A DNA stretch of 64,000 bases from a virus (IMGVR_UViG_3300031972_001405:23425-87424); one strand, 5' to 3'. Numbered from the stretch's first letter, positions 19,179-28,432 are shown. Program-made: numbers and translations. The notes: generated by a model from the letters alone, not told the origin.

Positions 19179-19424
19179 CTACCAATCAGGATATAGTTCT
19201 CCTTCTAATCTCTTCGTCTTTTCTCTTCTAGATCTAGATATCCTTTTCTTGGAACAGTCCTTACATTCATATGAATATGATGATGGTTGATACTTATTCT
19301 TTCGAGTTCTGTAGAAACCATCAATAAGATTTTTTGTTTTACCACACACCCTACACTTTCTATCGGTAAGATAGAGATGTTCTATCTGAAATTGTTCTTC
19401 AACATTCATTATTGATATTCCCAC
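19179..19424 (-). CDS. Small zinc-finger-like protein
   Basis: CRVC...FY...YECKDC, ending YPDW; lies between gp17 and gp18. Confidence 0.7.
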   Translation of the reverse strand: MGISIMNVEEQFQIEHLYLTDRKCRVCGKTKNLIDGFYRTRKNKYQPSSYSYECKDCSKKRISRSRREKTKRLEGELYPDW

Positions 19425-21064
19425 ATGTGAGACATATCACCATATTCACCAACTGATGCATTAGACCAACGATCACCCTGAGCATCGACAAAGCTAGTAT
19501 CTTCTAGACCATCAGACATGAATCCAAATGGTGCCATATCCTGTTCAATCTGATTCTTCTGCTCGTCATATAATCTCTTTCTAATATCTTGATCCGTCAG
19601 TTCTTTGAAGTAGTCTTTTAAAACTAACCAGGCATAGATCACAAGACACATTGCCAGGTCATCATTACACCCCTCTTCTGCTTCAAAGGAATTGTGTTTT
19701 TGGATGAACGTTGTCAACTCTGAGATGATATCATAGTCATTGAAGATTAACTTATCTTCTTCAATCAAAGTCTTTAGATTCAAGCATCCTTCTTTCTTTA
19801 CGGTCTTGGACATCTTGACACCCAGTTGTGTCTTCTTGCCAGAAAATCCCTGACCAACAATTTGTCCTGCTCTACCTCTCATAGAGCACATTAAAATATT
19901 TTGATATTCGAGATCATACTGTAGGATTGATGCTACTTGATCTCCAATATCATTCACCTCACATAAAATATATGCGTTGTTATATCCTCTTACAGTATCG
20001 TAAATGATACTTGGGAATAGCATTGGTTTAATTTCATTATTTCTATATCTTGCTACAACTACATGTGGATATTGTGTGATGTCTATAACAATAAATGCAG
20101 AATAGTCGCACCCAACTCCTCTAGCTACGTCTACTGTACACACATAATCATGATCTGGTTTAGGATCTTCATAAACGTATAGTCCTGCATTCTGTTTGAT
20201 TGGGTCAGTATAGACCATTGTCCTAATCTTACTAGGAGATATCAGTGTATCAACTGATCCTAGGAATTCACATTCAAACTCAACCTTAAATTGTTGTTCT
20301 GAAGTGTTAGCAATAGTTTGCCTCTTCCACTCAGAATCTCTACCAGGAACTTCAGACCAGTGAACCTCGGTTGCAACATAATCATTTTTCTGTCTCTCTG
20401 CATCATGCCAATATCTGTAGAAATGGTTCATGCCGTGAGGCGTTGAAACCATAATTACTTTTGTGCTTTTACCAGAAGAAATAGTAGGATAAACAGATGC
20501 AAAGAATTGGTCTGCAATATGGTTTGGAATAAACGCAAATTCGTCGAGGAAGATGACATTATATGAACCGCCTCGGACAGCAGATGCAGATGTAGAAGCT
20601 GCCAGTATCTTACTGCCATTCTCCAACTCCATGGAACCTTTATTGTAAACCACAATACCTTGCTGCATCCATTGTGGTAACTTTTCATATGCAAATTGCA
20701 ATCTTCCAAGAAGATCTCTAGCAGTTGATGCTTTGTTTGCTAGAATTGCAATGTTTACATTGGCATTAAAGATGGCATAATGTAGTAGATATGATACACA
20801 CGTTGTAGACTTTCCAGTCTGACGTGGCATCTTGCAAATATTGAAACGGTGTTCGTGGAAGTTCCTCACCAATTTTTCCTGAAAAGGATACATCGAAAAA
20901 GGAACCTCACCCTCATCTAGTGAGACGATCTTAATATAATTCTTTGCAAAATATACTGGATCGGATTTACATTTCAAAAACTCTTGAATTTGATCACCAG
21001 TAAATTCAACCTGAACGTTTGCACGTTTTAGATTGGGATTACCGAGATATACTGCATCAGACAT
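19409..21064 (-). CDS. gp17: Terminase large subunit
   Basis: YLGNPNLK, PRQTGKST, LDEFAF, STPHG.NHFY, DDLAM. Confidence 0.98.
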   Translation of the reverse strand: MSDAVYLGNPNLKRANVQVEFTGDQIQEFLKCKSDPVYFAKNYIKIVSLDEGEVPFSMYPFQEKLVRNFHEHRFNICKMPRQTGKSTTCVSYLLHYAIFNANVNIAILANKASTARDLLGRLQFAYEKLPQWMQQGIVVYNKGSMELENGSKILAASTSASAVRGGSYNVIFLDEFAFIPNHIADQFFASVYPTISSGKSTKVIMVSTPHGMNHFYRYWHDAERQKNDYVATEVHWSEVPGRDSEWKRQTIANTSEQQFKVEFECEFLGSVDTLISPSKIRTMVYTDPIKQNAGLYVYEDPKPDHDYVCTVDVARGVGCDYSAFIVIDITQYPHVVVARYRNNEIKPMLFPSIIYDTVRGYNNAYILCEVNDIGDQVASILQYDLEYQNILMCSMRGRAGQIVGQGFSGKKTQLGVKMSKTVKKEGCLNLKTLIEEDKLIFNDYDIISELTTFIQKHNSFEAEEGCNDDLAMCLVIYAWLVLKDYFKELTDQDIRKRLYDEQKNQIEQDMAPFGFMSDGLEDTSFVDAQGDRWSNASVGEYGDMSHMWEYQ

Positions 21065-21186
21065 TAGTCTTCCTTAAAGAAATTTGCAACTGCACTTAGC
21101 GCAGAATGGAAAGCAACATATAGAAAAAATTGGTCGGAAGATTCCTTCCTCATTTTTTTCTTATAAGTCATGGGAGTGCGAGCCAT
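21064..21186 (-). CDS. 40-aa microprotein (not in ORF track)
   Basis: MARTPMTYKKKMRKESSDQFFLYVAFHSALSAVANFFKED; GGAG Shine-Dalgarno; stop overlaps the gp17 ATG. Confidence 0.65.
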   Translation of the reverse strand: MARTPMTYKKKMRKESSDQFFLYVAFHSALSAVANFFKED

Positions 21187-21214
21187 AATAATCTCCAAAA
21201 TTTCAACTATTTAA

Positions 21215-21244
21215 CAATTCTCATAGAATTCTCATAGAATTCTT
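21215..21244. repeat. 11-bp tandem repeat, AATTCTCATAG x2 plus a partial third copy
   Basis: aattctcatag-aattctcatag-aattctta, next to a TAAATA box at 21208-21213. Confidence 0.6.
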
Positions 21245-21521
21245 AGAAAGGAGCGATTCCCCCCGTCATTCCACCAGCAGGACTAGCAGGAGCAGGAATG
21301 ATACCACCAGTGGCACCAGGCATTTCTGGAATCTCTGGCATAAGTCCATCTAGCATACCAGGAAGAGCACCTGCAACTGCTTCTGTTGCTGCCTTAGTTG
21401 CTGCTTCTTTTGCTTGTTCGATAAGTGAATCTTTATTCACATAGACATAGGTTCCAGCACCTACGATAGTTGCAGTTCCTAGAAAGGATAGAACTGCCAG
21501 GACATTAATTAGTTTTTGCAT
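21243..21521 (-). CDS. Membrane-anchored protein with a Pro/Gly-rich tail
   Basis: N-terminal hydrophobic helix; PEIPEMPGATGG tail. Confidence 0.75.
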   Translation of the reverse strand: MQKLINVLAVLSFLGTATIVGAGTYVYVNKDSLIEQAKEAATKAATEAVAGALPGMLDGLMPEIPEMPGATGGIIPAPASPAGGMTGGIAPF

Positions 21522-21522
21522 C

Positions 21523-21612
21523 TTAACCTTTACCTTTTTTTATAGGCCATGTTATATGTAGTCCATAACAAAGTAGAGTTATAAATCCAAATACAAAAAT
21601 TCCACTTAACAT
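21523..21612 (-). CDS. 29-aa single-pass membrane microprotein
   Basis: MLSGIFVFGFITLLCYGLHITWPIKKGKG; tightly packed with its neighbours. Confidence 0.55.
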   Translation of the reverse strand: MLSGIFVFGFITLLCYGLHITWPIKKGKG

Positions 21613-21779
21613 GGTCCAGAATCGCGACTAGGTATTAGTTGGTATGCCATTTTATCTCTCAACTTATTGACACGATCTTCATTGTATTGTTTGAAGTTTC
21701 CACGTTTCTCTACTTTTTTATAGTAGTGTAATGCATTGAGGATGATCGCATAATCATCCATATCTAATTCAAAATTCAT
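21606..21779 (-). CDS. 57-aa hypothetical protein
   Basis: MNFELDMDDYAIILNALHYYKK...; ATGA overlap with the nuclease gene stop. Confidence 0.65.
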   Translation of the reverse strand: MNFELDMDDYAIILNALHYYKKVEKRGNFKQYNEDRVNKLRDKMAYQLIPSRDSGPC

Positions 21780-22237
21780 TCTACTAGTGTTCCATGTGCT
21801 CTACGAATTTCACGAAGTGCTTCAAGGTTCATGTCCTTTGTGCCACCATCATATGCGTGAGCATATCCTTCAGTAATCATTTGTTCGTTGAGGGACACTG
21901 ACTCGTCCCCAATGTATAACCAACCAAGAAGACGCCCATATTTCCCAGTGCCACCAACAAGTTCAGTCCTAACAGACAACTCATCATCACCAGCCAAAGT
22001 GCCTTCGAGTTTCTCTTTGAGCCAGTTGGTTGCGTCGATTCCAAGTGCCTTCTCCTCTAAGTTTCTGGTCCTCTTCTCTGGCGTATCAACGCCTGCAACT
22101 CTAACTCTTTCTTTCTTGTATAAATCAAACCCGAGGTCAATAGTGACATCGATAGTATCGCCATCAAGAACACGATTGATCTCCGTTACTCGGAAGTTGT
22201 AGCAGCTCTTCCTGCTTGGTGGTGTCAGTCCTGCCAT
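21776..22237 (-). CDS. Thermonuclease (SNase-like)
   Basis: RVLDGDTIDV, RVRVAGVDTPE, GKYGRLLG. Confidence 0.9.
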   Translation of the reverse strand: MAGLTPPSRKSCYNFRVTEINRVLDGDTIDVTIDLGFDLYKKERVRVAGVDTPEKRTRNLEEKALGIDATNWLKEKLEGTLAGDDELSVRTELVGGTGKYGRLLGWLYIGDESVSLNEQMITEGYAHAYDGGTKDMNLEALREIRRAHGTLVE

Positions 22238-22373
22238 CTTCTAATTCTGCGAATGCCATTCTTAGTATGTATATGACTACAAACAAAGCACCTGCAACTG
22301 CAAGTATCACACATATAATCACTGACCATACAGGATCATCTAGATTTGTACTGGGACGTAATATAAGATTCAT
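22164..22373 (-). CDS. Single-pass membrane protein
   Basis: DPVWSVIICVILAVAGALFVVIYILR helix. Confidence 0.65.
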   Translation of the reverse strand: MNLILRPSTNLDDPVWSVIICVILAVAGALFVVIYILRMAFAELEDGRTDTTKQEELLQLPSNGDQSCS

Positions 22374-22567
22374 AATTTATTAAATCGATAGTCTAAAATT
22401 ATTCTGTATAAAGAATCTCTTAGATGCCAAAGATGCTCTTGCTCCTCGTATGGACGTGCTGGTGCTCCAGGCCAAAATTTTATAGTCTCTTGAACTGAAT
22501 GATGCAATAGTCTAATGTCTTCTATTCTCAGACTAATCTCATAATCTGGAAGATTTGGGTCGTTCAT
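22370..22567 (-). CDS. Hypothetical protein
   Basis: Start at the ATG at 22567 overlapping the upstream stop; WPGAPARPYEEQEHL. Confidence 0.7.
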   Translation of the reverse strand: MNDPNLPDYEISLRIEDIRLLHHSVQETIKFWPGAPARPYEEQEHLWHLRDSLYRIILDYRFNKL

Positions 22568-22737
22568 GGGTTGTTTGGATTTAAACCTAATCTGATTAGA
22601 TACTCTTGCCACCAATCTTGATCTTTCACATATCTCCAATTGGGAACTTCTTGCCCACGCTCTATAACATAATATTCATAAAGAGCATCATCTATAGTCT
22701 GTGCGATCTGTAAATTCTTCTTCCTCCTCGTCAACAT
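22564..22737 (-). CDS. Hypothetical protein (start uncertain)
   Basis: IDDALYEYY...VPNWR...WWQEYL..LG; fills the gap in an operon-like array. Confidence 0.5.
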   Translation of the reverse strand: MLTRRKKNLQIAQTIDDALYEYYVIERGQEVPNWRYVKDQDWWQEYLIRLGLNPNNP

Positions 22738-22897
22738 CTTCATACGGATTGTCCACGTATGGTCCTCGTTTTCGTAGAGGTTCTTTTCCGACATAAGAGT
22801 TTTCTGTATTAACTGCAGATACCCACACCACAAGTTTCATTACTATGAAAATAATAACCAGTGGTGTAAAGCAACCGATTAAAATTACAGGATTCAT
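22688..22897 (-). CDS. Single-pass membrane protein with an acidic tail
   Basis: N-terminal TM helix; C-terminal DVDEEEEEFTDRTDYR. Confidence 0.7.
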   Translation of the reverse strand: MNPVILIGCFTPLVIIFIVMKLVVWVSAVNTENSYVGKEPLRKRGPYVDNPYEDVDEEEEEFTDRTDYR

Positions 22898-22899
22898 TC

Positions 22900-23052
22900 C
22901 TATTTCCCCTCAAACGGTTCCCAGTGCTCCCAACCATATTTATGAACTGCCCACATACCAAGAATGGGGACGAAGACTAGGCACCATGCCAAGACTCCAA
23001 CTCCCCAAGGGTTGTTTAATACTGTTCCGCAAAATCTAGCAAATTGTAACAT
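22900..23052 (-). CDS. 50-aa membrane microprotein
   Basis: TM helix followed by Trp/His-rich MWAVHKYGWEHWEPF. Confidence 0.7.
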   Translation of the reverse strand: MLQFARFCGTVLNNPWGVGVLAWCLVFVPILGMWAVHKYGWEHWEPFEGK

Positions 23053-23147
23053 CATTCTTGAAAAACCGATAGGATGAATAGAAATAATCCAAGGAAGCAA
23101 ACCAATCCTATTAAAACAAATGGAATATAATCAGGTAGGGTATGCAT
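23052..23147 (-). CDS. 31-aa single-pass membrane microprotein
   Basis: MHTLPDYIPFVLIGLVCFLGLFLFILSVFQE; stop overlaps the next start. Confidence 0.55.
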   Translation of the reverse strand: MHTLPDYIPFVLIGLVCFLGLFLFILSVFQE

Positions 23148-23223
23148 GACTCAACCCCCAGACAACAAAAATCGCAATTGAAGATAATATAATTGTTGCT
23201 GAAAGACTAGTTTCTGGTTTCAT
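23131..23223 (-). CDS. ndhQ: NdhQ-like NDH-1 small subunit homolog (30 aa, not in ORF track)
   Basis: MKPETSLSATIILSSIAIFVVWGLSHAYPT aligns without gaps to the NdhQ TM/C-terminus as recalled (ISAVLILGFIAGLIWWALHTAYA). It lacks the NdhQ N-terminal part. Confidence 0.55.
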   Translation of the reverse strand: MKPETSLSATIILSSIAIFVVWGLSHAYPT

Positions 23224-23225
23224 TT

Positions 23226-23381
23226 TTATAGATTTGGCCAGGGATCCGAATTGTGGAGACATGACCTAGGATGTGTCCACTCTCTATTTAATTCTTGTAG
23301 TTCCATTTTTAACTTTAAATTTTCGAGTTTCAACATAATGTTTTCTTTCTCTAACTTTTTAAGTTTCTTCCTGAAATTCAT
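23226..23381 (-). CDS. 51-aa coiled-coil microprotein
   Basis: MNFRKKLKKLEKENIMLKLENLKLKMELQELNREWTHPRSC. Confidence 0.55.
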   Translation of the reverse strand: MNFRKKLKKLEKENIMLKLENLKLKMELQELNREWTHPRSCLHNSDPWPNL

Positions 23382-23592
23382 TTCTTGTTTTCCATAGTTC
23401 TAAAAAGTACCTATCAACCAGGTACAAATCACCAACTGGTGGTTGATCTTCAATCTGAGACCACTCTCTACATACATCTCTCATTTCTAAAGAGATGTGA
23501 TCTGGACGAAACATTCTACCAAAAGAAGACATGGCAAACGCAAATCGCATTCTAATGCGCTGTTCCATTTCCTCTGTAGGCGTCGGTTTCAT
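23359..23592 (-). CDS. Hypothetical protein
   Basis: Start likely at 23592 (or 23568), not 23670, because the upstream part overlaps ndhP; RMRFAFAMSSFGRMF. Confidence 0.65.
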   Translation of the reverse strand: MKPTPTEEMEQRIRMRFAFAMSSFGRMFRPDHISLEMRDVCREWSQIEDQPPVGDLYLVDRYFLELWKTRNEFQEET

Positions 23593-23683
23593 AATAGTTA
23601 TTTTCACCTCTTCTGTGCCCGAAATATGCGGTGGCACATATAAAGGGTAGTGATCCGTAAAGTAGGACATGTGCTAAAGTCAT
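23552..23683 (-). CDS. ndhP: NdhP, NDH-1L complex small subunit homolog (43 aa, not in ORF track)
   Basis: MTLAHVLLYGSLPFICATAYFGHRRGENNYYETDAYRGNGTAH: one TM helix, then the NdhP C-terminal signature FG...YYxTDxYxGNG[ST]AH. ATGA overlap with the upstream gene. Confidence 0.85.
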   Translation of the reverse strand: MTLAHVLLYGSLPFICATAYFGHRRGENNYYETDAYRGNGTAH

Positions 23684-23913
23684 ACGCCTGGTTTAGGTTG
23701 TGGAAATATATTAGCAGGTCCCGTAGGTTCTGCAAGTTTTATTTCGATAACGCGACAAAGACGATTAACTTGCTTCTTGTCACATCCACATGGAGCATTT
23801 TGTAAGCACCTGAGCATTAGTAAGTCATCACTAATAGGAGGTTTGATTGTAAACCCCCATTTGTCAACCTTACCTTCTGTAGGTGCTTCGACGTAATCAA
23901 ATTCACTTGTCAT
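23680..23913 (-). CDS. Hypothetical protein
   Basis: 77-aa ORF coupled to the gnd-like and ndhP genes. Confidence 0.65.
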   Translation of the reverse strand: MTSEFDYVEAPTEGKVDKWGFTIKPPISDDLLMLRCLQNAPCGCDKKQVNRLCRVIEIKLAEPTGPANIFPQPKPGV

Positions 23914-24383
23914 TAGATAACATTACCTGGAGATAAGGATTGGAAAATTTTAGAACAAGCATTGATAGCATGACTTGCTCCGTATGTATTAGAGAAAATA
24001 TATGAGATTCCCAACTTAGAGCAATACTTTTCAAGCTCCTGACATTTTGATATGTCCCTATTGCTATGATCAATAATGATATCACCCTCCTCAAGTAAGG
24101 GTAGCAACTCATCAAGTATGTCTTCTACTTTTACTTCTGGGAGTGTAATCTGAAAAATACCAGGAATTCTACCAGCACTAGTGTATTGCTTACTATCAGA
24201 TTTAACTGCTTGAACAAGATACTCCAGTGAAGTTACACACCCACTAAGATGTCCTGCTTCATATTGTCCACAGGCATTCTCGTAGTTGGTACTACTGTAA
24301 CCCCAAACTTCAATTCCTTTTTCAATCATACGGCGGGACATACCTTCACCAGTACGACCTAGACCAATCATTCCAACTTTCAT
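23913..24383 (-). CDS. 6-phosphogluconate dehydrogenase NAD(P)-binding domain only (truncated gnd-like)
   Basis: MKVGMIGLGRTG, GIEVWGY, LLEEGDIIIDH. Ends before the catalytic GHFVKMVHNGIEY region. Confidence 0.8.
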   Translation of the reverse strand: MKVGMIGLGRTGEGMSRRMIEKGIEVWGYSSTNYENACGQYEAGHLSGCVTSLEYLVQAVKSDSKQYTSAGRIPGIFQITLPEVKVEDILDELLPLLEEGDIIIDHSNRDISKCQELEKYCSKLGISYIFSNTYGASHAINACSKIFQSLSPGNVI

Positions 24384-24568
24384 TTTAATCTCTCTATAAT
24401 TCTGAGCATTCCATCAGCATAACCGATCAATGCTATTGATCCCAATATGATGCTAATCAATGTTGCTCTGCGATTGTGTTTGTCCATCGCATCATCAATC
24501 ATTTTTTGAACATCTTTTCTTACTAACCTCTCAGGAGGTTCAATGTCTTTCCCCCATTTTTCAAACAT
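24380..24568 (-). CDS. Membrane microprotein
   Basis: MIDDAMDKHNR followed by a TM helix. Confidence 0.7.
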   Translation of the reverse strand: MFEKWGKDIEPPERLVRKDVQKMIDDAMDKHNRRATLISIILGSIALIGYADGMLRIIERLK

Positions 24569-24572
24569 GTTA

Positions 24573-24869
24573 TTATGACCCCATCATATCATTAAGGTCA
24601 GTCATAGTCTTCTTTTTAGATTCAAATACACCATCAATATATCCTGATCTATACTCCCATGTTTGTCCACCATCAAGTCCTTTCGATGGATTGATACATT
24701 GATCATCGCCTAGTTTATTGCAAACAAGACCAGCAAGATCTAATTCACTTCTGTCATATGATGCAGCTGTGCCACTAAAGACATGCTTGCCGTTAATCCA
24801 AATAGCACCACATTTAGGACATTCTTTTCTCTCAAGTTTGAGATCAGACAGTTCCTTATCGTTGGTCAT
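24573..24869 (-). CDS. Cys-containing hypothetical protein
   Basis: CPKCGAIWING...DLAGLVC...CINP. Confidence 0.75.
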   Translation of the reverse strand: MTNDKELSDLKLERKECPKCGAIWINGKHVFSGTAASYDRSELDLAGLVCNKLGDDQCINPSKGLDGGQTWEYRSGYIDGVFESKKKTMTDLNDMMGS

Positions 24870-25089
24870 TTTTCAATTCCTTTATGAGTTTGTTGTAATC
24901 TGGTAAATCCTTGATGAGTTGTTGTTCTAATTTACGACGCATCAAATACATCCTAAATCGAATCCAGGCATAACGCAACTGTAGATCGACGTAGGCGAAC
25001 AGTCTCCATGTATCTTCTATTCCCGCGTAAGATACGAGTAGAATAAAACAAACTAATAGTAGATAAAATCCTAGCATAAGTATCAACAT
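24856..25089 (-). CDS. Membrane-anchored hypothetical protein
   Basis: N-terminal TM helix; CTAAATA late box at 25105-25111. Confidence 0.7.
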   Translation of the reverse strand: MLILMLGFYLLLVCFILLVSYAGIEDTWRLFAYVDLQLRYAWIRFRMYLMRRKLEQQLIKDLPDYNKLIKELKNDQR

Positions 25090-25140
25090 GATACTGTCTA
25101 GGATTATTTAGATGCCTCTAGCACCATTATTTTTAAATTG

Positions 25141-26682
25141 TCAGCAATTCCAAGCTCTAAGAGACTTATTGATTCTGCTATCGGGATCTCTAGCAGTCTT
25201 GGCAGAAGTTAGTTTTGCCTTCATACCTTTCATTCTTGCACAGAATGATGCTCTTCTCTTATTACCTTTCTTCTTAGAAGGTGCTTTCAGATCAGAACCA
25301 GGGTTATCTCTTTCATAAGACTTGCGTCCTTTTTCATTGAGACCACCTTCTTTATTCTTACCTGCACTACGAGTCCAAGCAGCTGCTTCCTGTTGCTGAA
25401 CCTGGGAATTATCACCCGTCTTCATAGAAGTGGAGAGACGCTTCTTTGCTTGCTGAGTCTTCTTCAGATTCAACATAATCTGTTGTTTTTGAAGTTGAAT
25501 ATCTTTAGGTTCCATACTCTCACCAACATTCATCATAAATGTTGGTTTTGTGGGATCCTTCATGGAAGGATAATACGTTTGCAGAAGTCCTCCAGGATAA
25601 ACTTTCTGAACTGCATCTTGAACTTCACTTCTTTTTGGAAGCTTCATTTGTGGGAAGAATACTTGCATCATAAGTGGCTTCCCACGGAAGTTCAAATATA
25701 CTACTATGGTTTGTCCATTCTGTGTGGGAATCCGAGTAGCAGCCTCATTGATAGATGAATTGTCCTGGTGTTCCAGATCCTGTCCATGATCGTTCTCCTT
25801 GACACAACGATTGTAGGTCTTACCGAAGAGTTTCTGCGTGCCTGCTTTCTTGTACCCTTTCCAACATTTTTTACCTGCTTCGTCAAGTTCAATCACACCA
25901 ATACTTTCCATAGCACGAATCTGTGCTGGACTGAAACCCTCTTTCTTAGTACTGTTGCCCCAATTCTTTGCACCCTTCTTACGGCACTTTACAAGGGCAC
26001 CTGAGGCGTATGCAGAAGGCCATACAGAATAGCGAGACTTGACCTTATGGTAGCAAGCATCCTTCTCTCCCTTACCTTCCAATTGCACTTCTTCTTTCTT
26101 TATACCAGCAACACGATCAATTGCGTTACCAAGTGCTCTGCCAATCTTGTCGCGCTTACGCTCTTTGGGTTTGATATTAGCACCCATCTTATTCAATCTA
26201 CTAGCAGCAGTGCCAGACTTTTGCTTTGATGCCTTCTGACGTTTGGAGTAGTCCATGTAGGACTCACCTGGTTTCAGTTTCTTAGGATCTGTCTTAGGTT
26301 TTGCTGCATCAGCACGATCTTCACGAGCACGAGCATTAGCACCAGGTCCACCCAGTTTCTTATCCTTCTCAGGATCGGGATGCCAGGTATCAGCACGTTC
26401 GATAACAGTTTCTTCAGTCTTCACGTTGATTGCCTTCCCTGAACGATTTGGATTTGGGTCTTTTGTATTCTTACGACGGAATGCTGACTCCTCCTCATCT
26501 TTGGAGAGAGCACGTTTCATTTTACTGGAACCACACTTAGGTTTGGTAGTTTGTCCTGGTTGCTTGGCACATGGCTTACCAGAATACTTTCCACCCAGTT
26601 GAACCCAACCAGGCTTGCCGTCAGATGACTTGCTTTTACCAAACCAGTCGCGTAGTGATGAGTCTCCAGACTTAGATGCCAT
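25141..26682 (-). CDS. Modular basic protein (DUF5872- and DUF6321-like modules); candidate internal head polyprotein
   Basis: Modules LRDWF..., KDACYHKVK...WPSAYASGALVKC, KCWKGY...NRCV, and AWTR..GKN..GGLN...SFCARM...WNC. ATAAATA late box at 26706-26712. Confidence 0.75.
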   Translation of the reverse strand: MASKSGDSSLRDWFGKSKSSDGKPGWVQLGGKYSGKPCAKQPGQTTKPKCGSSKMKRALSKDEEESAFRRKNTKDPNPNRSGKAINVKTEETVIERADTWHPDPEKDKKLGGPGANARAREDRADAAKPKTDPKKLKPGESYMDYSKRQKASKQKSGTAASRLNKMGANIKPKERKRDKIGRALGNAIDRVAGIKKEEVQLEGKGEKDACYHKVKSRYSVWPSAYASGALVKCRKKGAKNWGNSTKKEGFSPAQIRAMESIGVIELDEAGKKCWKGYKKAGTQKLFGKTYNRCVKENDHGQDLEHQDNSSINEAATRIPTQNGQTIVVYLNFRGKPLMMQVFFPQMKLPKRSEVQDAVQKVYPGGLLQTYYPSMKDPTKPTFMMNVGESMEPKDIQLQKQQIMLNLKKTQQAKKRLSTSMKTGDNSQVQQQEAAAWTRSAGKNKEGGLNEKGRKSYERDNPGSDLKAPSKKKGNKRRASFCARMKGMKAKLTSAKTARDPDSRINKSLRAWNC

Positions 26683-26704: not shown

Positions 26705-26986
26705 TTATTTATCTTTTTTCTCTTCGTTAACTGTGGGTTCTTCTTTCTTTTTAGACGCAACGACACCGAACGTCGCGAGCGTTCCAGTAAAAACGCTGGC
26801 GATAAAAGTTGGATCAATGTTTTTCTGGGGAATTCCAGGAACAGTTACATAATTAAGGGTGAGAATTGCTGCTGACCATCCAAGAATAATAACTCGGACG
26901 AGAGTTGATACACCCTCATCCGCCCACTCAAATTTGTTTGAGTTTGGTTTTTCAGGTTTCGCTACCTTTACCACCTTTTCTTCCAT
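26705..26986 (-). CDS. Two-TM membrane protein
   Basis: VRVIILGWSAAILTLNY and IDPTFIASVFTGTLATFGV; ATG at 26986 has a GGAG Shine-Dalgarno. Confidence 0.75.
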   Translation of the reverse strand: MEEKVVKVAKPEKPNSNKFEWADEGVSTLVRVIILGWSAAILTLNYVTVPGIPQKNIDPTFIASVFTGTLATFGVVASKKKEEPTVNEEKKDK

Positions 26987-27398
26987 TGTCCATCTCCTTG
27001 AGCATTTTTTGTAAGTCTGCTGTTGATCCGACAAATAGTGCATTAGTAACGTTAGTTGGACCAGTTACCTTGTTATCATCATCTAAGTCTTTCACTTTCT
27101 TTTGTAAATCCATCAGTTTGTCTGTAGCATCAGACACATTTTTAATTAACTGACCAGCAACTTCATATGCTCTAGGCATCTCACTCTCACCTGCTAGTTC
27201 AAGAATACCATTGATAGCTTCTTGACCTTTTTCTATAATTGAATATAGATTGCCTCTAGTGTAATCATAATCTTTTTTAATGTGGTCAACATTATTTAAG
27301 TGCTTTTCGATTTTCACATCGACGTTCACTTTAGGTTCTGCTGGCATGATGTCAGCAGTAACGTCAAATGCATCACTCAAAGAATCAAAATCTGCCAT
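26952..27398 (-). CDS. gp16: Terminase small subunit
   Basis: DYDYTRGNLY, PRAYEVAGQLIK, NALFVGSTADLQKML. Confidence 0.95.
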   Translation of the reverse strand: MADFDSLSDAFDVTADIMPAEPKVNVDVKIEKHLNNVDHIKKDYDYTRGNLYSIIEKGQEAINGILELAGESEMPRAYEVAGQLIKNVSDATDKLMDLQKKVKDLDDDNKVTGPTNVTNALFVGSTADLQKMLKEMDNGRKGGKGSET

Positions 27399-28432
27399 CA
27401 GATGTCACCTTCCTGAGTAGAATCTTTGAAATCCTGGAAGTATGATATTGACTCATTGAATCCGAAGTCATCTCCAATTTCAATAAGAGCATCGTCAGCA
27501 GTAGTAAGAACATTGACCGTTGCTCCATTGACATGTTCAGCAGCGATAGTTCCTTCATATCCTCTCTTAACGACTAATTGATTGTTATCGATCTTCTCGA
27601 TATACATCATCTCACTATCAACTACAAATCTACCATAGGCAGACAAGGAGGATGCATCGTTGACTGTGATATATCTTTCTTCCGCAGAAAGATCTTCTGC
27701 GATAGATGTAGTGGCATCATTATCATAATCTTGAGTAGCTCTTGGTGTAACAGTATATCTGACTTCTCTTGGACCTCTTGGTGCAATTGTGGTGACATCC
27801 ACTGTTGCAGATTTGATAAGACCTGTGTCGCGACCAACAGGACCGAACAGATATGTCTTAGCAGAAAATCTAACAGTATAGATCAATGCTCTTCTTGTGG
27901 TAAAATCTCCCTCGTATTGATCGTCCATGGAAATGTTTTCCAAAATAATTGGAACATCTCTCTTTTCTCCAATCTCATCAACTAGATTAATTGTAATATT
28001 ATATTGTGGTTGAAAGAATGGTAAGATTTGTTCAATAATCTCAAGAGCATCTTCATTCGTCTTCGACATAATGCTCAGTTCAAAATTCATACTATATGGA
28101 ACAGGCATGAATGTCTTACGTGCCTTAGTTTTTTCCGATAACTTTTGGCTGATAAATGTTTGAGTTGATGTGGTTTTTCTTGCTGGGTCATATGTCATTC
28201 CATTCATCTCAAAAGACATTCTCGGAAGAGATAGAGATGTCGGAGCATTAATATTGGGATTTTGATCTAACCTTGCTAAGAACTTTTGTGTAGGTCCATA
28301 TGCCAAAGGCACCTTCAGGATACTGATTACATCTCCCGAGGAATTGGTCTTCCTAATTGTAATATTGTTAAAGAGAGTTCCGAAACCGATTACGGTTTTT
28401 CTAAAGATCTCGTGATAAAAATATTCAAACAT
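27398..28432 (-). CDS. gp15: Tail sheath stabilizer/terminator
   Basis: YFYHEIFRKTVIGFGTLFNNI, VPLAYGP.QKFLARL, QILPFFQP. Confidence 0.95.
   Translation of the reverse strand: MFEYFYHEIFRKTVIGFGTLFNNITIRKTNSSGDVISILKVPLAYGPTQKFLARLDQNPNINAPTSLSLPRMSFEMNGMTYDPARKTTSTQTFISQKLSEKTKARKTFMPVPYSMNFELSIMSKTNEDALEIIEQILPFFQPQYNITINLVDEIGEKRDVPIILENISMDDQYEGDFTTRRALIYTVRFSAKTYLFGPVGRDTGLIKSATVDVTTIAPRGPREVRYTVTPRATQDYDNDATTSIAEDLSAEERYITVNDASSLSAYGRFVVDSEMMYIEKIDNNQLVVKRGYEGTIAAEHVNGATVNVLTTADDALIEIGDDFGFNESISYFQDFKDSTQEGDI

Follow-up and report, generated by a model that had tools for sequence, protein, structure and literature searches.

An island of one-helix membrane microproteins with ndhP and a probable ndhQ between the terminase genes of a marine cyanomyovirus

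Introduction

PMC2984593, citing Millard 2009, describes the g15–g18 hyperplastic region of cyanomyoviruses as hypervariable and as containing 4–14 inserted genes, including gnd, zwf, and the gene for plastoquinol oxidase. Here we describe an island at positions 21064–25089 of a 64,000-nucleotide (nt) stretch of viral DNA (IMGVR_UViG_3300031972_001405:23425-87424, hereafter the window), which belongs to an 87-kb IMG/VR contig from a T4-like marine cyanomyovirus. We identify the island as the form that the known g15–g18 hyperplastic region takes in this phage, and the type of region is not new. It shares with that region its location between gp16 and gp17 in the structural module, its variable small inserts, its gnd-type carbon-metabolism gene, and a gene order that differs between phages. 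Published accounts of the region feature gnd, zwf, petE, and PTOX, whereas more than half of the genes here encode one-helix microproteins, several of which fall below annotation cut-offs. The nearest GenBank relatives are the Synechococcus phages ACG-2014h (S-MbCM7), ACG-2014a, and S-MbCM100, with ~85% nucleotide identity across parts of the island; in S-MbCM7 and S-MbCM100, the interval between gp16 and gp17 contains gnd and petE along with partly shared sets of these small gene clusters.

Two of the microproteins resemble subunits of the cyanobacterial NDH-1L complex. NdhP sits in the distal NdhD1/NdhF1 unit of NDH-1L, and a deletion mutant loses the complex (PMC4131877); NdhQ was found in the same preparations. 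Phage ndhP has already been reported for P-TIM68 and S-SCSM2R, and a 2025 paper terms it uncommon (PMC12801897). We found no mention of a phage ndhQ in the searchable literature. On balance, we favor the reading that this hyperplastic-region island combines an NDH-1L electron-transport core with membrane accessory proteins that evolved in phages. Through their auxiliary genes, cyanophages reshape photosynthetic electron flow in the main primary producers of the ocean, and a large share of the phage cargo in their best-known variable slot consists of unannotated or "hypothetical" one-helix membrane proteins.

Identification of ndhP and an ndhQ-like gene

An earlier annotation of the window made without database searches, the sequence-only reading, had noted that two open reading frames (ORFs) of the island resemble NDH-1 subunits. 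Both resemblances were borne out, that of NdhP firmly (E = 2.6e-4 in the Protein Data Bank (PDB), and detection in Synechococcus elongatus) and that of NdhQ at the level of profiles (E = 0.004). The match of the phage NdhP to chain P of Thermosynechococcus elongatus NDH-1L runs through the C-terminal motif Y.TD.Y.GNG.AH, which is invariant in 14 phage NdhP copies. We fetched 80 related viral loci for the recovery of homologues by tblastn, and the ndhP ORF was intact in 53 of the 54 distinct aligned segments from them. Among 14 control genomes, phrog_2173 was found in S. elongatus only; this result was obtained at the default threshold, which was used instead of a maximum E-value of 1, where 8 genomes matched and the control was uninformative. 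The phage protein thus shares with cyanobacterial NdhP (PDB 6KHI and 6HUM, chain P) its length of 43 amino acids (aa), its single helix, its C-terminal motif, and a significant structural-database match, and differs in that its gene sits, in another reading frame, within the 5′ portion of a second conserved gene. By homology, 23552–23683 encodes a genuine, host-derived NdhP.

The ndhP gene is far commoner in phages than the term "uncommon" in PMC12801897 implies. ORFs resembling ndhP were found in 381 GenBank cyanophage records, comprising 325 of Synechococcus phages, 46 labeled Cyanophage, and 10 of Prochlorococcus phages. Nearly all of them are hypothetical or unannotated and lie between gnd and zwf, for example in S-RIM2 and S-RSM4. 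Neither the Pfam nor the NCBIfam scan recognized NdhP, and a profile search of protein databases returned only phage-like proteins of 43 aa. Two database matches, P0019 and P0024, lie on long contigs of 485 and 332 kb, respectively. A scan of genome contigs with the NdhP alignment gave no cyanobacterial locus. Its sole match, a 19-residue tblastn match with 58% identity to the C-terminal motif in a Flavisolibacter metagenome-assembled genome (JBJMLU010000084.1, Bacteroidota), was discarded as probably due to chance.

The second candidate is the ORF ending at 23131. Its start was corrected to 23223, giving 30 aa, and the longer N-terminus contains stop codons in relatives. A profile of 7 sequences gave NdhQ as its top PDB match (E = 0.071). 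A library-wide hidden Markov model search returned 21 relatives of 27–74 aa, consisting of phage-like proteins of 27–37 aa and two read-through fusions; at its library-wide E-values, a profile of 29 positions cannot reach host NdhQ. When 18 diverse relatives from this search were added, the resulting 25-sequence profile ranked the three NdhQ sequences of the PDB as its top three matches (E = 0.004, 0.0097, and 0.068), followed by a match at 0.96. The phage protein and cyanobacterial NdhQ (PDB 6L7O, 6KHI, and 6HUM, chain Q) share a single helix aligned over residues 21–44 of 45, with common positions S-A, W..L, and A-Y. Compared with the T. elongatus chain, the 30-aa phage protein lacks the first ~17 residues, and the identity is low. 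Because the E-value improves with profile depth, the C-terminal register is kept end to end, and the gene lies ~330 nt downstream of ndhP, homology of 23131–23223 to NdhQ is probable. A tblastn search of GenBank phages with the 30-aa peptide, a short query of low complexity, gave no match.

Overlap of ndhP with s103

The ndhP gene lies in the +1 frame, out of register, within the first 40 codons of the gene for s103 (phrog_593; this and the other short names are those of Table 1). In 47 distinct sequences of the clade to which the phage belongs, the third-position entropy of ndhP is 1.09 at codons 2–4 and 0.14–0.18 over the rest of the gene, beginning with codon 5. This codon, where the entropy drops, is the exact position of the s103 ATG, and outside the overlap the third-position entropy of s103 is 1.0. 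Four-fold degenerate codons of ndhP, such as V6, G10, A17, T18, G22, G26, G38, and A42, are identical in 47 of 47 sequences. Among possible changes that leave NdhP as it is and alter s103, only 18% were seen, and changes synonymous in both frames were all seen (3/3). Since the synonymous sites of ndhP are frozen across the s103 overlap, the ndhP DNA is probably dual-coding in this clade. The frozen sites make this locus a clean candidate example of gene overlap involving an auxiliary gene of a phage.

Several observations are caveats to dual coding. In a second clade, in which ndhP is followed by zwf, the third positions vary far more freely (0.63 and 0.95), and in ACG-2014f a stop codon interrupts the s103 extension, leaving a protein form of 77 aa. 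The open +1 frame inside ndhP was rejected as evidence of coding, as 94% of synonymous recodings stay open. The AlphaFold2 model of s103 has a pLDDT of 77, with residues 1–30 disordered and residues 31–102 predicted to form a three-helix bundle, and gave no significant fold match in the PDB. Rows naming LYR-type subunits of complex I (E = 2–6, TM about 0.25) were too weak to count as evidence. The s103 family was absent from the control genomes (0/14).

The overlap also accounts for the way annotation pipelines report s103 and overlook ndhP: the GenBank annotation of S-RIM2 has the overlapping s103 gene only.

In the second clade (viral contigs and S-RSM4), 65 of 66 loci have a +1 frame that continues uninterrupted from within ndhP into zwf, and it often begins with an ATG at nucleotide 13. 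The residues at the start of the S-RIM2 s103 (..NQTTMTETGPLTKG) match the N-terminus of zwf, which hints at a recombination just inside the 5′ end of zwf.

Ten one-helix membrane proteins

The island was described in the sequence-only reading as ~4 kb of tightly overlapping ORFs of 29–156 aa, at least ten of which have a single hydrophobic helix, and our analysis agrees on both points. Approximately 19 ORFs of this size range lie on the minus strand between gp16 and gp17, and their junctions are mostly overlaps of 1–23 nt or gaps of 1–4 nt. PHROG families were matched by 15 of the 19 (E from 1e-12 to 1e-96), with NdhP assigned separately to phrog_2173; the ORFs of 30, 31, and 29 aa have no PHROG family. 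Relatives of every island ORF were found by tblastn in the 80 viral loci, an intact ORF was recovered at most matches, and the pooled ratio of nonsynonymous to synonymous polymorphism (pN/pS) was 0.14–0.81, below 1 for all ORFs.

We defined a helix as one 19-residue segment with a mean Kyte-Doolittle (KD) hydropathy of at least 1.6. Exactly ten island ORFs were counted as one-helix proteins, namely those at 21243, 21523, 22164, 22688, 22900, 23052, 23131, 23552, 24380, and 24856, which are the ten that had been named. For ndhP (23552), the value is 1.48 in the window copy and at least 1.6 in 94% of the homologues; in the other nine, the helix segment is kept in all recovered homologues (24 of 24 for T62). 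All ten are conserved in related viral contigs, with a pooled pN/pS of 0.27–0.81. By a crude gene call, the rest of the contig (83 kb) contains only 4–5 small helix ORFs, which indicates that the concentration of ten helix genes in 4.0 kb is real.

For the ORF at 22900 (T66), the family alignment placed the start at 23055, giving 51 aa (MMLQF...) with a Trp/His-rich tail, GMWAVHKYGWEHWEPF. The gene for T31 overlaps that of the NdhQ-like protein by 17 nt and that of T66 by 4 nt. The PHROG annotation of the T92 family is "plasmid stability". The last 74 nt of T69b (22164–22237) also contain, in a different frame, the first 25 codons of the gene for a staphylococcal-nuclease-like protein, and the PHROG matches of both genes span this overlap.

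Gene order in related phages

A backbone order of gnd, (s77), ndhP, s103, (cc51), (ndhQ-like), (T31), and T66 is kept across 27 long related loci. Wherever T66 is present in a long locus, it comes after ndhP-s103. In contrast to this backbone, T29, the T77-z98 pair, T62, T69a, s57, s89, and T92 change slots or are absent across the 27 loci; the slot of T29 differs between phages. Contigs of relatives from RNA libraries join straight across the absent cassettes.

Promoter-like boxes and transcription

The late motif of cyanophages is NATAAATA (PMC2984593). The island had been placed downstream of TAAATA boxes at 25105 and 23285 in the sequence-only reading. The first of these stood: the CTAAATA at 25105 is one mismatch from the late motif. 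The second did not, since the box at 23285 is a weak TTAAATA within a coding region, and the canonical ATAAATA at 22937–22943 had been missed. In the window, 7 of 8 CTAAATA sites and 13 of 13 ATAAATA sites are on the gene strand. With a CTAAATA 16 nt before the first gene and an ATAAATA 40 nt before T69a, transcription of the island from late promoters is suggested by these motifs. A scan for sigma-70 promoters was uninformative (20 sites against 18.5 expected).

Several ATAAATA and CTAAATA sites also lie 20–40 nt upstream of the starts of structural genes, a pattern that fits T4-type late promoters.

RNA-sequencing contigs from three marine libraries of three studies match 21886–22296, 23530–23666, and 24078–24488 (the nuclease gene, ndhP, and gnd) at 90–95% identity. 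The contigs cover small shares of the island, and the part without cover carries no meaning.

Search for host counterparts of the other eight helix proteins

It had been proposed in the sequence-only reading that the remaining helix proteins are captured small subunits or regulators of thylakoid complexes, with the Trp/His-rich T66 and the acidic-tailed T69a as examples. For these two as for the others, the proposal was left unsupported rather than refuted, as no direct search of marine Synechococcus or Prochlorococcus genomes was made. The NdhP family served as the positive control, as its PHROG detects a host-derived microprotein of 43 residues in a distant cyanobacterium, S. elongatus. Under the same test, the families of T66 (phrog_1184), T69a (phrog_2832), T69b (phrog_814), T62 (phrog_1096), T77 (phrog_1181), and T92 (phrog_568) were found in 0 of the 14 control genomes, S. 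elongatus included. Profiles of these six proteins gave no match better than E ~0.5 in the PDB, which includes solved cyanobacterial photosystem I (PSI), photosystem II (PSII), b6f, and NDH-1 complexes. For all eight (T77, T62, T31, T66, T69a, T69b, T29, and T92), no Pfam or NCBIfam family was found.

Wider databases gave a similar picture for four of the proteins. The only neighboring Atlas clusters of T62 with recorded taxa are viral, and in the three nearest Atlas clusters shown for T92, the recorded taxa are 100% viral. Of the 514 relatives of T66 in the databases, the best 120 are on contigs no longer than 197 kb; for T69a, with 3092 relatives, almost all of the best 120 are on phage-sized contigs, and the informative source names among its relatives are a phage and a mis-binned metagenome genome. 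An exact 8-mer scan of 185,579 species genomes, which is an insensitive method, found no relative of T66. T66, T69a, T62, and T92 look to be virus-only or confined to phage-sized contigs. As far as these tests reach, the families of the eight proteins appear abundant, conserved, and phage-only, confined to cyanophages and with no cellular homologue detected.

Proposed function of the island

We propose that the g15–g18 slot in the late structural and packaging module is a place where small accessory genes accumulate and shuffle. The run of ~19 genes, which is probably translationally coupled, lies behind the late-promoter-like boxes. Its functional core would be an electron-transport module of short Gnd, (s77), NdhP, s103, (cc51), the NdhQ-like protein, T31, and T66. 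NdhP, which is well established, and NdhQ, which is probable, would act as host-derived one-helix subunits, which in cyanobacteria stabilize the distal NdhD1/NdhF1 unit of NDH-1L. It is plausible that a late supply of both would keep NDH-1L assembled and sustain cyclic electron flow, respiration, and the ATP supply. Such upkeep of NDH-1L, cyclic electron flow, and ATP supply by the phage is indicated by a widespread NdhP with an NdhQ-like partner ~330 nt downstream, and would fit the pentose-phosphate genes nearby, a gnd fragment in this phage and both zwf and gnd in related ones.

The eight other one-helix proteins are most likely membrane-inserted accessory proteins that evolved in phages rather than captured host subunits. 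Among them, T31 and T66 would be the best candidates for action on the same complex as NdhP and NdhQ, because overlaps chain them to ndhQ and T66 almost always follows ndhP-s103. The remaining helix genes would be independently mobile cassettes.

Several points weigh against this reading. The NdhQ identity depends on an alignment of 24 residues of a hydrophobic helix at E = 0.004. T31 and T29 were compared with the Pfam, NCBIfam, and PHROG libraries only. The homologues considered were the best 120, and weaker cellular matches could rank lower. S. elongatus is a distant freshwater control, in which microproteins restricted to picocyanobacteria would be missed. Finally, the contigs from RNA libraries come from relatives and may represent DNA, and they give a weak hint of transcription of the island.

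The strongest competitor is a role for some or most of the non-NDH helix proteins in the late membrane needs of the phage itself, through lysis timing of the holin, antiholin, or spanin type or through superinfection exclusion, and not in photosynthesis. For the freely shuffling helix proteins in particular, such a role would be a fair rival, although for the set we rate it as unlikely. The T4 membrane proteins t, rI, Imm, and Sp are models for lysis timing and superinfection exclusion. Like the island proteins, they are small, single-pass proteins encoded in non-essential variable regions, and a single pass with charged tails is common to many holins, antiholins, and exclusion proteins. The location in a late module behind late-promoter-like boxes and the cassette-like mobility of phage-only families also speak for such a role. 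However, PHROG detected no sequence or family relationship to Imm, Sp, rI, or holin t, and no holin or spanin annotation of the PHROG, Pfam, or PADLOC type was seen, the PHROG families being listed as of "unknown function". The island ORFs include no endolysin and no lipobox-bearing ORF, T92 has no lipoprotein partner beside it, and T31 and T66 are tightly linked to ndhP and ndhQ.

A bolder version of the NDH-1L reading is that T31, T66, and perhaps others are subunits invented by the phage, which would dock with NdhP and NdhQ on the NdhD1/NdhF1 arm and give a remodeled NDH-1L, with the ndhP DNA also encoding the N-terminal 40 residues of s103. We consider this quite improbable. If true, the phage would build a remodeled NDH-1L and not merely repair the complex of the host.

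Somewhat less probable still is a host origin for most of the one-helix proteins, as small subunits or regulators captured from thylakoid complexes; these would be uncharacterized photosynthetic microproteins of the host that the phage re-expresses. Two island members are host NDH-1L subunits, the island carries a gnd fragment, relatives carry petE or zwf, and T31 and T66 are genetically chained to ndhQ, all of which would fit capture. Moreover, as Pfam and NCBIfam miss NdhP itself, the silence of these libraries is weak evidence against a host origin. Against capture stand the six families that were unmatched in S. elongatus under a test that detects NdhP, and that likewise matched no chain of solved PSI, PSII, b6f, NDH-1, or ATP synthase; the viral Atlas neighbors and named database relatives; and the absence of a T66 relative from the 8-mer scan. 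The eight non-NDH families are unfit as probes for "missing" photosynthetic microproteins of the host unless host homologues are found first.

That the small ORFs are not real genes, being open by chance in AT-rich DNA, is hardly credible in view of the conservation data: the ORFs of 30, 31, and 29 aa do lack a PHROG family and fall below the usual gene-calling cut-offs, but all three have tblastn matches, mostly intact ORFs, in 29–52 of the 80 related loci, the helix is kept in every homologue, pN/pS is below 1, and the 30-aa family has 21 library relatives.

Features of the island and its flanks

The coordinates of the island genes, the flanking genes, and the boxes are summarized in Table 1.

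Table 1. Features of the gp16–gp17 island and its flanks, listed in the direction of transcription.
Feature	Position	Strand	Description	Evidence and remarks
gp15	27398–28432	-		PHROG scan
gp16	26952–27398	-	Terminase small subunit	PHROG scan
CTAAATA	25105–25111	-	Late-promoter-like box	16 nt before T77 ATG at 25089
T77	24856–25089	-	77 aa, N-terminal transmembrane (TM) helix, then basic amphipathic helix	phrog_1181, E = 9.6e-33; KD 3.05
z98	24573–24869	-	98 aa, soluble, CxxC motif	phrog_484, E = 9.7e-41; no TM helix; pN/pS 0.41
T62	24380–24568	-	62 aa, tail-anchored, C-terminal TM helix	phrog_1096, E = 3.5e-25
Short Gnd	23913–24383	-	156 aa	phrog_3646, E = 1.3e-96; PF03446, E = 1.2e-12 over residues 2–129
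s77	23680–23913	-	77 aa, soluble	phrog_1542, E = 4e-43
ndhP	23552–23683	-	43 aa, single helix, NDH-1L subunit P	PDB 6khi_P, E = 2.6e-4; phrog_2173, E = 7.7e-26
s103	23359–23670	-	103 codons	phrog_593, E = 8.9e-49
cc51	23226–23381	-	51 aa, coiled-coil	phrog_2352, E = 3.2e-12
ndhQ-like	23131–23223	-	30 aa, single helix, ends WGL..AYP	NdhQ chains are top PDB matches
T31	23052–23147	-	31 aa, single helix	tblastn in 29 related loci; pN/pS 0.58; helix in all homologues
T66	22900–23055	-	51 aa, single helix, Trp/His-rich tail	phrog_1184, E = 2.4e-30
ATAAATA	22937–22943	-	Canonical late-promoter core	40 nt upstream of T69a start codon (22897)
T69a	22688–22897	-	69 aa, N-terminal helix, acidic tail DVDEEEEE..DRTDYR	phrog_2832, E = 5.3e-40
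s89	22370–22639	-	Soluble	phrog_628, E = 1.9e-25; match begins at residue 31
T69b	22164–22373	-	69 aa, central helix, acidic C-terminal tail	phrog_814, E = 1.5e-35
Staphylococcal-nuclease-like endonuclease	21776–22237	-	153 aa	PF00565, E = 2.3e-11; phrog_452, E = 3.2e-76; pN/pS 0.14
s57	21606–21779	-	57 aa, soluble	phrog_835, E = 1.6e-36
T29	21523–21612	-	29 aa, single helix	tblastn in 52 related loci; pN/pS 0.36; helix in all homologues
T92	21243–21521	-	92 aa, N-terminal helix, helical Ala-rich middle, Gly/Pro-rich tail	phrog_568, E = 3.5e-35
s44	21064–21198	-	Small ORF	phrog_8670, E = 1.7e-13; stop codon overlaps gp17 start codon
gp17	19409–21064	-	Terminase large subunit	PHROG scan

The short Gnd consists of the NAD(P)-binding domain of 6-phosphogluconate dehydrogenase alone. 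This short form has a PHROG family of its own and is likewise annotated in S-MbCM100 and ACG-2014a; the gnd of S-MbCM7 is full-length (345 aa). The s77 gene is missing from many relatives, and gnd there abuts ndhP. For cc51, the only Pfam matches were weak ones to coiled-coil families. The start of s89 is likely the internal Met at 22567. The s44 ORF was recovered by tblastn in just 4 of the 80 related loci.

Two further genes lie between gp16 and the island. The one at 25141–26682 encodes a Lys-rich protein of 513 aa with a C-terminal DUF6321 (PF19846, phrog_727), and a canonical ATAAATA (26706–26712) is located just upstream of it. The other, at 26705–27043, encodes a protein of the DUF6450 family (PF20048, E = 2.9e-32) in which two segments appear hydrophobic. 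It comes just after gp16, overlapping the gp16 3′ end, and is a further membrane protein of the gp16–gp17 interval, outside the island as delimited in the sequence-only reading.

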